32,000 nt of DNA. It comes from Candidatus Baldrarchaeum yapensis. Lineage in GTDB: Archaea > Asgardarchaeota > Baldrarchaeia > Baldrarchaeales > Baldrarchaeaceae. Positions 1,817-21,765 of this stretch are shown here, piece by piece. The DNA lies in contig JAEOSH010000008.1 of assembly GCA_016840465.1 (NCBI GenBank), positions 24,981 to 56,980 of the forward strand, read 5' to 3'. Position numbers and translations under genes: made by a program. How positions within the stretch are numbered: the stretch's first letter is position 1; the number at the start of each line of letters is the position of its first letter. The notes beneath the pieces are model-generated. The model was not told the origin of the DNA. It saw only the letters and a program-made list of their open reading frames with translations, and did no database searches.

Positions 1817-4419
1817 ACATACGCCTCTTCGGCCGGTATTTCCTTTTCGTCTATTTTGCTTTTTACACCTCTTATTATTTTCTCGAGAACCTCGATGGCG
1901 CCATTCTTGAATAGCGGTTGATTATTATTACCACACTGATAAGAGTACGTGCAGTTAGGGCACCCGCTTATCGATTTACATTTACATTCCTTGAGAATCA
2001 TGAGAGACCTTCTAAATCCCTCTTCTAGTCTATCATATAGGAGTTTAGAGAGACCATTACCTCCAGGGCACGCGTCATGGACGAAGATAATTCCTGTGGT
2101 TCCAAGAGAGATGCCTCCGATTTCTCTACTTCCTCCACCTGTCAACATATTACTGCTTTCTATGAGAACGTGTTCAACAGCATGAAACGTACCTGCTATC
2201 AGATCCAGTTGTGATACCTCCGACGCTCCAAACCTTTCCACGGCATCTTCTATGGACTTCTCCGGGAACGGTGCCTGAAAGACAAAGCCCTTTGTCTCAT
2301 ATGTGTATTTAATTTCCTTATCCAGATCCTTTTGATCAACAGTCTCGCCCGTGAATATGTTTTTTACAACATAACCGTGGACCACATCAGTGACTCTTAA
2401 CTTACAGTAAATAACCGCAACTCCGAAAACGCTTTTTCTGTCATAAATGTCAAGAACCTCCGGTATTGAGTAATGTAATGCCTCCGTTTTCAAATTATTG
2501 AATTCAGGGAGCTTTCTGACGATAGCCCTCCCAACTCCTCCCCTGAATTCGAAAGAGATCGACTCGTACTGGTGTCCCCCGTGAAGATATATGGCACCGG
2601 GATGCAACTCTCGCGCGGCCATCGGCATTTCTCGTTCTCCCAGATATCTGCCACTCTCATCATATATCACAACAATATCACCCGTTCCCCTGATGTTATA
2701 CTCGGCCAATATCTTTTTCGCGATCCTCCAGTTTGGTACTAAGGTTCCATTTCTGGTCCTCACAAGTACTCCATCGTCTAACAACTTCATCTTCACATTC
2801 TCAAAGTTCGCAAACTCATCCTCACGCAGGGGCATATCCATTGCTGCTGCAAGTATTTGATAGTAGGCAACGACCTCGTTGTGCGGTTCCACGTATATCG
2901 GAGCTATATCGGTAAAGTAATCATCCGGATGTTGGCGATAGTAGGTACTTATCGGATCTCTATCTCTGAGTGCAAGAATGGCTATACTCTCTTGTCCTCT
3001 TCTTCCTGCTCGTCCGATTCTCTGTGTTAGTTTTGTAATGTCTGTGATCATGGATATCGTTGCGTCGACGAATCCTATATCTATTCCTAACTCGAGAGTC
3101 GGCGTCGCCACAAGTACATCGAGATCTCCTCTCTTGAATCCCCGTTCAACAGCCTCTCTAACTTCTTTTCTTAAACCCGCCCTGTGAACAGCGCTTTTTA
3201 TTCCCGCTCTCTTTGCCATAATGTTTATGACTTCTGCGTCCTTGTGCGTATTACCAAACACTAGAGTCTTCCTTTTTTCATCAACGAGAGCCCTTAATGC
3301 TCCGATTATCATCGCATAAACGGACCTATATGCAGGGTATAGCATCAAGAAGTGCATTCTTCCTCTTCGCGCTTTTTTACATACTATTTCACGCACGGGT
3401 ACTCCGAAAAGCGTCTCAGCAAATTCCTTTGCATTACTTATGGTTGCGGACGCGCCAATAAATTGAAGCCTTCCTCCACATAGTCTCTTTAGTCTCTGAA
3501 GAATAAAGTGAACGTTCGCGCCAAAAGCACCCGTATATACATGAAAATCATCTAACACAACAGTCTCGACCCTAGAAATGAGATGACGGAAGGACGGATC
3601 CTTTTTACGCATATGGTAATGAAGCATGTCAGGATTCGTAACTAAAATATCGGGAGGGGAGGAAAAAATTCTCCTCCTAACCTCAGGTGGGGTATCTCCA
3701 TCAAAAGCCTCAGCTCGAATGCCCACAGCCCCACATAATTCATGCAATCTATCCAATTGATCACGGGCGAGAGCCTTTGTCGGGTATATGAATATTGCTC
3801 TGACATGACGGCTAGGTGCCCTCTCCGGCGCCAATACACCCCATCTTGGAACATTTTTCGAAATTCTATCGATTATTGGAATAGCAAAAGCCTCAAACTT
3901 CCCCATGCCGGTCGGAGCAACTATCACAACGTTCTCTCCTTCTATTATCGCTTTTATCGCTTCCTCTTGATATTTATACAGTCTTTTAATACCTCTCTTC
4001 TTTAGCACATTCTTTAATTCGTCCGAGATGTTAAGATCATCGACGCTGCATCCAAATTCCGGCTCCTCCTCTCTAAATAATTTGTATCTAACCAGGTAAT
4101 CGCGTCCTTCTTTAATGATTTTTCTTACTGAAAGCGGGAGATCATCAAATGAAATTCCCTCTCTTTCTATCTCTTTCATTATGTCATCCAAGCTTCTCAC
4201 TAGTGAGCTATCCATCTTAGGCCTAATCTCCCCCCTCTCATAAGCCTCGATGAACGAGAAGTAAGCGTCTAACTCATCTTTAGTTCTAGGCGGGCAAACA
4301 TACCTTATTCTACATTCGTAACATCTAACTACGAAATGCGGCCCCTCACGTCTGACACGGAGTTTATCGCCACAGAAGGGGCAATGCACTCCATACACGG
4401 GATTCACCATGGCATTCAA
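1813..4419 (-). CDS. SF2 DEAD/DEAH helicase with DUF1998 (Hrq1/MrfA/SftH-like), N-terminal Zn ribbon and non-canonical Walker motifs
   Basis: Q motif LYKYQEEAI, APTGMGKF, YPTKALARDQ, TNPDML, VLDDFH, SAT, ATPTLELGIDIG, QRIGRAGR. C-terminal HAVEH..PGGNG..CKC..GCPNC. N-terminal CPFC..CYEC. Alternative ATG at 4410. Confidence 0.9.
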   Translation of the reverse strand: MNAMVNPVYGVHCPFCGDKLRVRREGPHFVVRCYECRIRYVCPPRTKDELDAYFSFIEAYERGEIRPKMDSSLVRSLDDIMKEIEREGISFDDLPLSVRKIIKEGRDYLVRYKLFREEEPEFGCSVDDLNISDELKNVLKKRGIKRLYKYQEEAIKAIIEGENVVIVAPTGMGKFEAFAIPIIDRISKNVPRWGVLAPERAPSRHVRAIFIYPTKALARDQLDRLHELCGAVGIRAEAFDGDTPPEVRRRIFSSPPDILVTNPDMLHYHMRKKDPSFRHLISRVETVVLDDFHVYTGAFGANVHFILQRLKRLCGGRLQFIGASATISNAKEFAETLFGVPVREIVCKKARRGRMHFLMLYPAYRSVYAMIIGALRALVDEKRKTLVFGNTHKDAEVINIMAKRAGIKSAVHRAGLRKEVREAVERGFKRGDLDVLVATPTLELGIDIGFVDATISMITDITKLTQRIGRAGRRGQESIAILALRDRDPISTYYRQHPDDYFTDIAPIYVEPHNEVVAYYQILAAAMDMPLREDEFANFENVKMKLLDDGVLVRTRNGTLVPNWRIAKKILAEYNIRGTGDIVVIYDESGRYLGEREMPMAARELHPGAIYLHGGHQYESISFEFRGGVGRAIVRKLPEFNNLKTEALHYSIPEVLDIYDRKSVFGVAVIYCKLRVTDVVHGYVVKNIFTGETVDQKDLDKEIKYTYETKGFVFQAPFPEKSIEDAVERFGASEVSQLDLIAGTFHAVEHVLIESSNMLTGGGSREIGGISLGTTGIIFVHDACPGGNGLSKLLYDRLEEGFRRSLMILKECKCKSISGCPNCTYSYQCGNNNQPLFKNGAIEVLEKIIRGVKSKIDEKEIPAEEAYV

Positions 4420-4492
4420 TTATCAATACTCTTAGGAACATCGTGCTTAAAAAAGAACTTTAATGGTATCACTGGATGAGGACACATAACTC

Positions 4493-5050
4493 CTACAACA
4501 TAGAACTCGGATTATGCTCTTCATGCTCATTAAATCTGTTAACCTTGTAAATTAACCTAAATGAGGAATATTGGAGAACGTTTTTTGGCTTAAAAACTTT
4601 GCAAACCTCATCCGGCTCGCAAAACCCCATTTTTCTCATATTATCGCATGTAAGTTTGTATGCCCCCATAACATCGTCTATGAGACATGCAGCAATGAGA
4701 TACGAGGCGACAACGGTAATTTTATTTTTGCGGAATGCAGCCCTTACACACGGTGGAGCACGTTCGAGATGCGCTCTTAAAGCGAGATTGCGGAGTTTGT
4801 CCATTAACAAACATTTTCCACGCTTTAACTTCCATATGCAATTCTTACAGATATTTTCTGGTAGAAGCTTGCATAGCTCACGTAATGCGGCGGTACTGAA
4901 ACCATCACCTCTTAACAAGTGATAATTTAGTTCCATAAAGTATATAGGATCAAAATGTCCCAGCTCATGCACTAAACTCTGAGCCTCTCGTACTATTGTA
5001 CTAATATCACATGCCCAGTACTTCATATATTGCTCATCGCCCGAGGACAT
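4493..5050 (-). CDS. Cys-rich protein resembling the primase large subunit (PriL) Fe-S C-terminal domain
   Basis: PPC-x33-C-x8-C-x5-C followed by KNVLQY, plus an upstream C-x7-C-x2-C-x8-C. Start moved to the ATG at 5050 to avoid a head-to-head overlap with the divergent gene. Confidence 0.65.
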   Translation of the reverse strand: MSSGDEQYMKYWACDISTIVREAQSLVHELGHFDPIYFMELNYHLLRGDGFSTAALRELCKLLPENICKNCIWKLKRGKCLLMDKLRNLALRAHLERAPPCVRAAFRKNKITVVASYLIAACLIDDVMGAYKLTCDNMRKMGFCEPDEVCKVFKPKNVLQYSSFRLIYKVNRFNEHEEHNPSSML

Positions 5051-13367: not shown

Positions 13368-13829
13368 ATGATAATAAAGAAAGGGCCGCGTGAGCACCGC
13401 GGACCTCTTAACCCCAAGGATGTAAAGAGAGTGCTTAAGGGGAGGGGACTTGTCGAAGGATACGCCCAGGGGGTCGCGCTTGTTTCCTCGCAACCGATAT
13501 CGTTTCTCGGAGGGGTGGATCCGGAAACGGGGATGATTATAGAAAAGGGGCATGAGCTCGAAGGAGAGAAGGTCACAGGGCGCATACTCGTATTTCCACA
13601 CGGCAAAGGGAGTACGGTCGGTTCTTATATTCTTTATAGACTTGCCACAAGGGGATTGGCGCCGAAGGCAATAATAAACGTGAAAAGCGATCCGGTGGTC
13701 GTAGTTGGGTGCGTGATATCGAATATACCGCTTGTTGATTCCCTTAACGGGAACCCAATTACCGAGATAAAGAGTGGAGATAGGCTTTTCGTTGATGGCT
13801 ATAGGGGGGAAGTTTACATCCTCAAGTAA
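13368..13829 (+). CDS. DUF126 aconitase X swivel domain (phosphomevalonate dehydratase small subunit-like)
   Basis: GRGLV.G.A.G.ALVS..PISFLGGVDPETG.I.E.GH.L.GE.V.G.ILVFP.GKGSTVGSY. GAGGTG RBS. Confidence 0.9.
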   Translation: MIIKKGPREHRGPLNPKDVKRVLKGRGLVEGYAQGVALVSSQPISFLGGVDPETGMIIEKGHELEGEKVTGRILVFPHGKGSTVGSYILYRLATRGLAPKAIINVKSDPVVVVGCVISNIPLVDSLNGNPITEIKSGDRLFVDGYRGEVYILK

Positions 13830-13877: not shown

Positions 13878-13884
13878 CTTATAC
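13878..13884 (+). promoter_or_regulatory. Putative TATA box of the C/D sRNA
   Basis: CTTATAC lies about 25 nt upstream of the predicted sRNA 5' end. Confidence 0.4.
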
Positions 13885-13904: not shown

Positions 13905-13966
13905 TGGCGATGAAGACGCATGGCTTAGCTGAGGGTTCCGATGATTGATTTCCCGCATCCGAGCCG
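13905..13966 (+). ncRNA. Box C/D 2'-O-methylation guide sRNA (double guide, 16S rRNA targets)
   Basis: C GCGATGA 13907-13913, guide ..CGCATGGCTTAG, D' CTGA 13929-13932, C' CGATGA 13939-13944, guide ..TTTCCCGCAT, D CCGA 13959-13962. Guides are complementary to recalled archaeal 16S motifs CUAAGCCAUGCG and AUGCGGGAAA. Confidence 0.85.
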
Positions 13967-14015: not shown

Positions 14016-15854
14016 TTGCAATTGCCAGCCGAGCATGCGTTTATAGGGAAATTCTTAGAGCCGGATGGTAAAGTCAACGGAAAAGCGTATCTCGATCTAT
14101 CAAAGCCGAGAGTGGGGGTCATTGTTGGGAAGAGGGGGTCAGGGAAGAGTTACACCGCGGGCGTGATACTAGAGGAGTGCATCAAGCGATATCCCGAGTT
14201 CGCCTATGTGGTCATAGACATAATGGGAATTTATTGGTCTTTAAAATATCCAAACCTGTACGCGAAGGAATTGCAAAAACCCGGATTCGAGGGGGAGGTA
14301 TCACCGGAGGGTTTTGAAGATAAGATTCGAGTTCTCGTGGTGGAGGGGGATAAGGAGAAGTACACTGAGGGAACCTACGATGGAACTATTAGCTTAAAGC
14401 CTAGTGCTATTAGTTACAACGTGTGGCTAAACGTATTCAGGCTCCGCCCAGATGAACCTCAAGCCATTTTGCTGAAACTTGCGATGGATAAGGCGAGGGA
14501 GAAGAAGGAAGATTTCACATTAGAGGACATTATCTCTGCACTCGATGAACTCTCGGAAGGAAAACAATTCCAGAAACAAACATTTTCCGCGCTTAAAGCG
14601 AAACTGAAATACGCAGAAAGTTGGGGGATATTTTCGGGTAAGGGGCTCGATCTCAGAGATATTCTCAAACCGGGTGTAATAACGATAATAGATGTAAGTG
14701 AAAGCGACAAGGTTATCGCAAATCTGCTTGTCGGCTTTTTAGCAGAAAAAATATACGAAGAGCGGAAAAAGTTGATAAGAGCGGAAAGATGGGCGGAAGT
14801 GTCTAAAGAGAAGGCAGATATCAAGGGGATACCACCAACATGGTTAATCATAGAGGAGGCGCACAACTTCCTGCCTAGAGAAAGGAAAACAAAGGCGACC
14901 GGACCTTTGGTGACATATGTTAAGGAAGGCAGACATCCCGGCTGTGCATTACTTCTCATAACGCAGGAACCGTCATCGCTCGATGTTAAAGTGCTAAAAC
15001 AGATAGATTTCCTGATTATACATGGCCTATCGCACAAAAACGACTTTAAGGCAGTATCACAAATAACACCATGCCCTCTTCCCGAAAACTTCGAAGATGT
15101 GCTCTTAAAGTTGGATAGAGGGCAGGCGCTGGTCTGTGTGAGCGGGTGGGAGAATGCACAACTCGTAAGCATACGCCCACGTGCATCTCTGCATATTGCG
15201 AGAACGGAGATTTTGGAGAAAAAGGAAACGGAAAAGACGGAAATTCTAGGCATATGGAAGATGCTGGAAAAGGAACACCTGAAAGTTAAAACGCTCCAGG
15301 AAAGGGTACGCTTACTAGAAAGAGAAAAAGAAGAGCTCGAGCGTAGGGTAAGGTTACTAGAAACGGAAAGAGAAAAACTGATGAAGAAGCTGGAAGAACA
15401 ACACGCGGAAATATTAAGGCTGCAAGAGTTGCTTAAGGAGAGAGAGTCGAGAATGCGGGAGTTAGAAGAGACTATAAGTAGACTGATGTCACGTGAGGAG
15501 TATATGAGTGGGGATGCTCGAAGAGTCGCAGGTGCAGTTGTGAAGGCAGTTGTAAGCGCGGTCAGATCGTTAAGCCCCGAGGCAATTGAGGTACTAAAGG
15601 TAATTTCGAGAAAGGAAAGAGTGGCTACGGATGAATTGCGTAAAGATCTTCCCGTAAAGGTCAGAGTTTCAAACGCCTTAAAGGAGTTAGTTGAAAAGGG
15701 TCTTGTACGCGAAGAAGCCGTAAATAAAAAGGGAAAGAAGAAAATTTACGTCTATAATATGAAGGACGTCATTAAAAGCGTCAGTATAGTTCCTCTAACA
15801 GATCAAGATGTTGAGATACTGGTTAGAAAAATAGAGAGCATAATATTTACATAA
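14016..15854 (+). CDS. HerA/FtsK-superfamily (DUF87) ATPase with a C-terminal coiled coil and winged helix
   Basis: GKRGSGKS, VVID..G.Y, IIEEAHNF, KEGRH (Arg finger), ITQEP. Heptads at about aa 415-495. wHTH-like LSPEAIEVLK...VSNALKELVEKGLV...IYVY. Confidence 0.85.
   Translation: MQLPAEHAFIGKFLEPDGKVNGKAYLDLSKPRVGVIVGKRGSGKSYTAGVILEECIKRYPEFAYVVIDIMGIYWSLKYPNLYAKELQKPGFEGEVSPEGFEDKIRVLVVEGDKEKYTEGTYDGTISLKPSAISYNVWLNVFRLRPDEPQAILLKLAMDKAREKKEDFTLEDIISALDELSEGKQFQKQTFSALKAKLKYAESWGIFSGKGLDLRDILKPGVITIIDVSESDKVIANLLVGFLAEKIYEERKKLIRAERWAEVSKEKADIKGIPPTWLIIEEAHNFLPRERKTKATGPLVTYVKEGRHPGCALLLITQEPSSLDVKVLKQIDFLIIHGLSHKNDFKAVSQITPCPLPENFEDVLLKLDRGQALVCVSGWENAQLVSIRPRASLHIARTEILEKKETEKTEILGIWKMLEKEHLKVKTLQERVRLLEREKEELERRVRLLETEREKLMKKLEEQHAEILRLQELLKERESRMRELEETISRLMSREEYMSGDARRVAGAVVKAVVSAVRSLSPEAIEVLKVISRKERVATDELRKDLPVKVRVSNALKELVEKGLVREEAVNKKGKKKIYVYNMKDVIKSVSIVPLTDQDVEILVRKIESIIFT
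15303..15386 (+). repeat. Imperfect 42-nt tandem duplication (two heptads) in the coiled coil
   Basis: agggtacgcttactagaaa at 15303 versus agggtaaggttactagaaa at 15345; protein RVRLLEREKEELER / RVRLLETEREKLMK. Confidence 0.6.
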
Positions 15855-19962: not shown

Positions 19963-21765
19963 TTGCAAGAAGGGGTGGAACGCTTGGAAGGAAAGAAGGT
20001 TATTGTGGACTTCAGCGAAACCGAGGAAGTGGTTCTCGGCCCCGACTCCGAACTCGAAGAACTTAAGGTCACTGGTGCGGTCTCCGTGATCAATCCAAGT
20101 GAGAATTCGAGAATATGGAATGCAAAGTTGCATTTGTCCAATGTACAAAATCTTGATATTCCCTCGGGAGAGTATACCGTGGGAGAGGTGGAGCCCGGAG
20201 GCAGATGGTCACGAGAATATAAAGTCAACGTTTCTGAACCCGTTCTTCACGTTAAAGAGGTAATAGACACGTGGGCAAAGGAAGAAGGGGTAACGCATCA
20301 AGCTTTCTGCAGAGGAAAAGAAATGCCCGTATCAATCACGATAACCTTAAAGAATCAAACCGCAATGCCTGTTTTTAACGTCAGGCTCGAAAAGAAACTT
20401 CCTGACGGCTTTGAAGAGCCTGAAATAAAGGCAATGAAGGGTAATGTCACATATGAAGTGGATACTAGGAAGATCATCTGGGAAATTCCTCAGATGGATC
20501 CAGAAGCTGAACTCCTCATGCTGATTAATACTAAGACCCTTCGTGAAGATGGAAACCCCGTCGGAATGGGAGAAATAATTGTCACGTATGAGTTAAAGGG
20601 AAACTGTAGAGCAATAGCTGATGCGCATCTCGAGTCCATCGGCAGAAGTATGACCATGATCAACATAGAGGAGAGCGAAAAGGGACCCGGCTTTTGGGAA
20701 TGCGCGCTCCAGTTCCATAATAGAAGCGACATGATATACCTTGTAAGGAAGGCCGTCGTGACAATGCAAGACCAGAAGATTGTGGAGGTTGAGCCAAACG
20801 CAGAAGTAGCACCAAATGACAAGTGGATTCACAAGTTTACGGTTGAGGGATTAGAAAGTCCGAAACTCGATAAGGTTGTAGATTTCATAGTTGTTTATGA
20901 TATACATAGAAGCCTGAAGGGTACAATAAGGAAGAAGGAAAAAGTATTACCAGTAGTTGATGTGAAATGCGAGAAGAGATTTGAGCCTCCAAGTGTACCT
21001 GCATACCAAGTGACACCATTAACCGCGATACTAATACTGGAAAATATAGGAAGTGCAGTGATAGATTCCGCCGAGTTTAGTGACCTGATACCCAAGCACT
21101 TCGTCCCACCACAACCTGAGGACATAAAGGTCGAGGTTGATGGAAGGTCGGTCGAAGATGGCATAGAGGTTCTGCTGGAACCCTCCGAGGTAACCGCAGA
21201 AACTGAGCACAAGATGCTTGTAAAAGTAACCGACCTAATCGACAGAGTTGGAGGTCTTAAACCTGGAGGTAAACTCGTAGTATCATACCAGTTTAGGGCA
21301 ATGCGACCACTTCCGACGATGGAATATCCAGCTCCCTTGAAAGTTACAGGTTATGCAAAGCCCGCAGGACCTGGCGCGGATGCTGAGACGCCAGAGGGAG
21401 AGCCTAAGATAGGGATAACATACGTTAAGAGAAGATACACCTGCGGAAAGAGTTATGAACCCGGTGCAGCGGCCGGAGAGTTCATAATAACAATTTTGCT
21501 AAGCAATACGGGCGAAGTTCCGCTAGAGGATATAGAAGTTAAGGACGTCATACCAAGAGGATTCGAAGTTGTTGAGTGGACTCCTAAGACCGCTGAAGTC
21601 GAAACTAGAGAAGAGGAAGGAGTGCTTTACTTGGTGTGGAAGGTTCCACGCGTTCCTGCTGGGCAACAGGTAGAACTCGAATATAAGGTTAAGGGAACCG
21701 GTGAGTATGTCTCTAAGGAACCTATAGTGACGATACATGGTGAACGACGGGTGGAAGAGACTTGA
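19963..21765 (+). CDS. Soluble all-beta protein: adaptin mu-homology-like N-terminus plus DUF11/Ig-like modules
   Basis: TTG start after GGTGGGTGA; no signal peptide or TM. VIVDFSET..VTG.V and MKG.V.Y....I.W.I..M motifs; repeated N.G....v.D.iP.gf modules. Confidence 0.75.
   Translation: MQEGVERLEGKKVIVDFSETEEVVLGPDSELEELKVTGAVSVINPSENSRIWNAKLHLSNVQNLDIPSGEYTVGEVEPGGRWSREYKVNVSEPVLHVKEVIDTWAKEEGVTHQAFCRGKEMPVSITITLKNQTAMPVFNVRLEKKLPDGFEEPEIKAMKGNVTYEVDTRKIIWEIPQMDPEAELLMLINTKTLREDGNPVGMGEIIVTYELKGNCRAIADAHLESIGRSMTMINIEESEKGPGFWECALQFHNRSDMIYLVRKAVVTMQDQKIVEVEPNAEVAPNDKWIHKFTVEGLESPKLDKVVDFIVVYDIHRSLKGTIRKKEKVLPVVDVKCEKRFEPPSVPAYQVTPLTAILILENIGSAVIDSAEFSDLIPKHFVPPQPEDIKVEVDGRSVEDGIEVLLEPSEVTAETEHKMLVKVTDLIDRVGGLKPGGKLVVSYQFRAMRPLPTMEYPAPLKVTGYAKPAGPGADAETPEGEPKIGITYVKRRYTCGKSYEPGAAAGEFIITILLSNTGEVPLEDIEVKDVIPRGFEVVEWTPKTAEVETREEEGVLYLVWKVPRVPAGQQVELEYKVKGTGEYVSKEPIVTIHGERRVEET

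Follow-up and report, generated by a model that had tools for sequence, protein, structure and literature searches.

The 186-nt gap between two plus-strand genes (aconitase X swivel, HerA-like) in a 32,000-nt stretch of the Candidatus Baldrarchaeum yapensis genome (the window) raises the question of whether positions 13905-13966 encode a functional RNA and, if so, what it acts on. The first-pass annotation had placed here an unannotated double-guide box C/D sRNA for 16S rRNA, and boxes, guides and stem were all found in this position. Judged from its sequence, the element is very probably a real box C/D guide RNA of archaeal type, so far unannotated and belonging to a well-known class, and it is the sole strict four-box match within the window. 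The host is an archaeal metagenome-assembled genome (MAG) of 2.27 Mb, and DNA matching it comes from vent and sediment metagenomes. Its rRNA is 60-70% G+C, which suggests a thermophile. The machinery for archaeal box C/D sRNAs is encoded, with Nop5 and fibrillarin genes adjacent on contig C64 and an L7Ae gene on C67.

The locus comprises the following features, of which the TATA-like element, boxes D' and D and the box C' region were assigned by sequence.

13368-13829, plus strand: aconitase X swivel-domain gene, upstream neighbor (Pfam PF01989; context only)
13879-13883, plus strand: TATA-like element TTATA, 31 nt upstream of box C
13905-13908, plus strand: 5' strand of the terminal stem, UGGC, pairing with 13963-13966
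13909, plus strand: first bulge base, G13909, directly 3' of stem strand UGGC
13910-13916, plus strand: box C, AUGAAGA (RUGANGA type), placed by the register test; its 5' end is the same as in the Rfam sR39 consensus
13917-13928, plus strand: D' guide, 12 nt, pairing with 16S nt 44-55 (12/12 Watson-Crick), C13924 opposite G48
13929-13932, plus strand: box D', CUGA
13938-13948, plus strand: box C' region with two candidate frames, AUGAUUG(A) at 13941-13948 or CCGAUGA at 13938-13944
13949-13958, plus strand: D guide, 10 nt, pairing with 16S nt 382-391, C13954 opposite G386
13959-13962, plus strand: box D, CCGA, used in 3 of 18 host C/D loci
13963-13966, plus strand: 3' strand of the terminal stem, GCCG, pairing with 13905-13908
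14016-15854, plus strand: HerA/DUF87 ATPase gene with coiled coil, downstream neighbor (Pfam PF01935; context only)

The TATA-like box expected upstream was located at TTATA, which is likely to act as the sRNA's own promoter. A similar motif lies 29-38 nt upstream of box C at 10 of 18 host C/D loci, versus 7% of random, mostly coding, positions; a sigma-70 promoter scan of the region is not applicable to archaea. In the downstream HerA/DUF87 protein, a long coiled coil follows the ATPase part; close full-length homologs are found mainly in Asgard archaea, the best named ones in Asgardarchaeia. Elsewhere in the window, a 600-aa protein (19963-21765) combines DUF11 with an adaptor-complex medium subunit domain, a eukaryote-like trafficking domain.

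Placing box C three bases 3' of its earlier frame yields AUGAAGA, with a stem of 4 bp, a 3-nt bulge (GAU) and a spacer of exactly 12 nt, all of it guide. Across 12 host loci picked without a stem term in the score, the mean stem is 3.67 bp in the AUGAAGA frame versus 0.67-1.08 bp in five other frames. The CG that recurs before box C is the last stem base plus the first bulge base. By this stem test box C is AUGAAGA, and not the CGAUGA previously assigned to both C boxes; for C' two frames are possible, and C'-type strings AUGAUCG and AUGAUUG are present in published sRNAs. Likewise, the spacing of 45 nt between C and D holds in the earlier frame only, and is 42 nt in the supported one. The terminal AUGAAGA/CCGA pair, with its bulge and stem, thus has the make-up of a K-turn, while D' CUGA and C' (frame ambiguous) supply the internal boxes. 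Thermodynamic folding of the sRNA is uninformative (z 0.49), as expected for K-turn RNAs.

By established C/D rules, the locus would be transcribed as a stand-alone sRNA of ~60 nt. L7Ae would bind the C/D K-turn and the C'/D' K-loop, and Nop5 and fibrillarin would then join. Each guide is predicted to pair with unfolded pre-16S rRNA, where fibrillarin would 2'-O-methylate the nucleotide opposite the fifth base upstream of each D box, giving Gm48 and Gm386. The boxes, stem, complementarity and machinery genes are observed; transcription, RNP assembly and both methylations are predicted from those rules.

The host 16S gene is split across two contigs, with the 5' piece on contig C78. When the guides were aligned to it, as the first-pass annotation had proposed, the D' guide found a perfect 12-nt complement (nt 44-55), of which the host genome holds no other copy apart from the gene itself. 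The N+5 rule selects G48, the G of CUAAG as had been called, which a published alignment equates with E. coli C52, the first pair of helix 5. A guide was required to pair over at least 10 nt with host rRNA and to have a Watson-Crick pair at N+5, and the D' guide has both. The D guide selects G386 (E. coli G378, helix 15), agreeing with the earlier call of the first G of GGG. The host 16S piece ends inside this target after AUGCGG, leaving 6/10 nt visible, G386 among them. Six related metagenome 16S genes, which have a 102-nt exact stretch in common with the host and are 93-97% identical where alignable, read GAAACC after AUGCGG, completing the D target to 10/10. Reads of four DNA runs at the end of the host 16S gave branches of other organisms only, and the host continuation was not seen.

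When a composite 16S, the 23S and the tRNAs were searched, a single site stood out for each guide (D', 12/12 with the next best scoring 9.5; D, 10 versus 8.5). For the D guide, alternative sites closer by or on tRNAs were rejected on their lower score of 8.5. Estimated from random genomic sequence, matches to this rRNA set arise by chance at 2.3e-4 (12-mer) and 3.6e-3 (10-mer), or ~8e-7 jointly, to be set against ~30 strict four-box candidates in the host genome. Yeast and human 18S rRNAs are not known to carry a 2'-O-methyl at positions matching G48 and G386. An archaeal seven-species prediction table lacks 16S alignment positions G48 and G389 and includes the neighbors U52 and G387. In related rRNA operons (L036, L039, L037), both 16S and 23S are interrupted by insertions of ~560-670 nt that are likely introns.

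The host carries further RNAs of this type. A four-box scan against real rRNA returned 12 loci scoring at least 16, versus 1 and 0 with sense and reversed control targets, and a looser scan returned ~18 loci (about 18-20 unannotated), of RUGANGA type and mostly with CUGA; the sRNA at 13905-13966 is in the top-scoring group of both. A second long-range candidate (contig C68:13982, plus strand) directs a 12-nt guide to 16S A1012 and a 10-nt guide, with one G-U, to G1169; helix 34 probably supplies both target strands. A four-box RNA at C35:15079 (plus strand) shares its box C and C' strings with 13905-13966; its guides are mutually complementary and have no target in assembled host rRNA or tRNA. 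In the C9 and C38 RNAs, a D' of AGGA lies opposite a C' of AUGACUG, so that the K-loop stem regains its Watson-Crick pairs. On contig C59 (~4320-4500), the 23S gene is directly followed by a sequence that resembles RNase P RNA and holds CCACAUGGCAGAUGA, close to the bases just 5' of the sRNA's box C, probably by chance.

Same-species copies are identical across the sRNA, and so carry no covariation evidence. No two-guide homolog was found in ~800 genomes, MAGs being incomplete samples; the G48 guide was sought in 400 Asgard genomes, the helix-15 guide in 161, and each guide in 401 genomes of the phylum of a Nitrososphaerota MAG, the set including no other species of the host's family. A scan of genomes from all species identified one credible half-homolog, an unannotated four-box RNA in that Nitrososphaerota MAG (CAZCCB010000010.1). 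Its stem, box C, G48 guide and box D' are identical to those of the host sRNA except for one extra base; however, its D guide fits the 5' end of 16S (U8). In the host, a U8 guide is carried by a separate RNA (C89:55556, minus strand), with a 12-nt guide and a long 14-nt internal loop. No assembled 16S is present in the Nitrososphaerota MAG or in same-order genomes. This half-shared RNA would fit guide-module exchange or convergence, the single case being compatible with both; module exchange and fast turnover of C/D sRNA genes are documented (PMC6009581). Other matches to the G48-guide pattern, in two Asgard, one Thermoproteota and three bacterial genomes, are missing the other half needed for a four-box RNA, as are all eight matches to the helix-15 guide pattern, whose number is about the control level.

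G48 is the first nucleotide of helix 5 in the Rfam 16S structure, and its partner, C367, lies 19 nt from G386; the D target begins 15 nt past the helix 5 partner strand. The two targets, 338 nt apart in sequence, are therefore neighbors at the helix 4/5/15 junction, a relationship overlooked by the first-pass annotation. With targets >100 nt apart yet near in secondary structure, the sRNA belongs with the published long-range double guides, which were catalogued by Dennis et al. (2015), who proposed a chaperone role (PMC4644070), and are rarely conserved outside one genus (Lui et al., 2018, PMC6009581). Nanoarchaeum sR15 and sR17 and Pyrobaculum sR2, sR53 and sR56 have the same target geometry, but act on helices 28, 30, 3/18 or 23S sites, and the helix 5/helix 15 pair is absent from Table 3 of PMC4644070. 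Sulfolobus sR1 and Pyrobaculum sR18, guides for 16S U52, pair with the same helix-5 strand, but their target lies 4 nt downstream and the partner guide differs. In size, four boxes, K-turn stem, 10-12 nt guides, the N+5 rule and box variants, the sRNA resembles archaeal double-guide C/D sRNAs generally (PMC4644070, PMC6009581).

It is tempting to speculate that the sRNA doubles as a 16S folding chaperone, an added role that, by analogy with the published class, we regard as possible though doubtful. One guide would hold the 5' strand of helix 5 during transcription of ~310 nt while the other gripped helix 15 just beyond the helix 5 partner strand, and release of the guides would let the helix 5/15 shoulder close. 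The closeness of the G48-C367 pair to G386 favors this: a second site placed at random would have a ~1% chance of lying no more than 25 nt from C367 (an estimate, 50/4669 nt), becoming roughly 5-10% given several distant-target RNAs per genome. The published long-range class (PMC4644070, Table 3) and the A1012/G1169 candidate in the same host point the same way. However, the guide pair occurs in no other genome searched, and the Nitrososphaerota RNA couples the G48 guide to a different, nearby target, U8. The second target also lies beside the partner strand and not on it, and even for published cases the role is a proposal (PMC4644070).

Alternatively, the D' guide alone may work, with G48 the only methylated site and the C'/D half degenerate or its match incidental. 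C' and D are both non-consensus boxes, which counts against two working guides; the D guide is the shorter at 10 nt, its host target is incomplete, and this helix-15 target sits in a stable hairpin (-14 kcal/mol). Nevertheless, the D guide matches the related 16S genes 10/10 with a Watson-Crick pair at N+5, at the low chance given above, and CCGA boxes are common among abundant sequenced sRNAs, making a one-guide RNA improbable. Two working guides are the preferred reading.

That the locus is a chance arrangement or a silent relic appears very improbable. Rfam gives no match for the region at the gathering score, and relatives hold no syntenic copy: BLAST against 60 of them returned short chance matches only, and the closest homologs of both flanking genes have no such RNA alongside. 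Against a chance or relic origin count the low joint chance of the two guide matches and the documented fast turnover of such genes (PMC6009581). The best Rfam matches below the cut-off are themselves C/D RNAs, sR39 (RF01122) among them with E 1.8e-4. Its consensus matches the first 12 nt of the host sRNA and its box layout, but the score is 25.2 bits versus a cut-off of 50 and both guides differ, so the host sRNA is not a member. That the RNA escaped notice is presumably due to the guide-specific nature of the Rfam C/D models, rather than to any new box code.

The boxes are best read as common thermophile variants, with no new code. In the 18-locus set, for which the score included stems and the scan admitted only CUGA and CCGA as D boxes, box C is AUGAUGA in nine loci, AUGAAGA in five and AUGACGA in two, while 15 loci end in a CUGA D box and three in CCGA. 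The genome rescan that had been proposed thus found mostly CUGA, and stems favoring RUGANGA, in place of genome-wide CGAUGA/CCGA. Raw string counts in a published table, which covers 489 sequenced archaeal sRNAs, give 144 for CGATGA and 134 for CCGAG, and the table has CGATGAAGA 22 times. In Methanopyrus sR4, box C is identical to that of the host sRNA, C' is of AUGAUCG type and the D box is CCGA; RUGANGA/CUGA-CCGA variants are abundant in published Methanopyrus sets and in Rfam sR39. A lineage-specific CGAUGA/CCGA dialect requiring altered L7Ae or Nop5, suggested by CG before box C in 9/18 loci and by CCGA in this sRNA, is scarcely credible when that CG is stem and bulge, 15/18 D boxes are CUGA, and the same strings recur in sR4 and sR39.

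No C/D RNA catalogue for Asgard archaea was found in a literature search. The gain from this two-guide sRNA is modest: for Asgard archaea, it adds two sites of predicted methylation and a new long-range combination of guides to a well-studied class. Since EF-G domain II contacts helices 5 and 15 (PMC5207388), the predicted marks would lie on a functional surface. The half-shared Nitrososphaerota RNA cleanly illustrates either convergence or the exchange of guide modules. More tentatively, and with some doubt, the sRNA may be a working 16S shoulder clamp in which recently shuffled guides tether helix 5 to helix 15. The helix 5/15 surface so tethered is one that translation GTPases touch, and the long-range pairing is not among the published archaeal guides listed.
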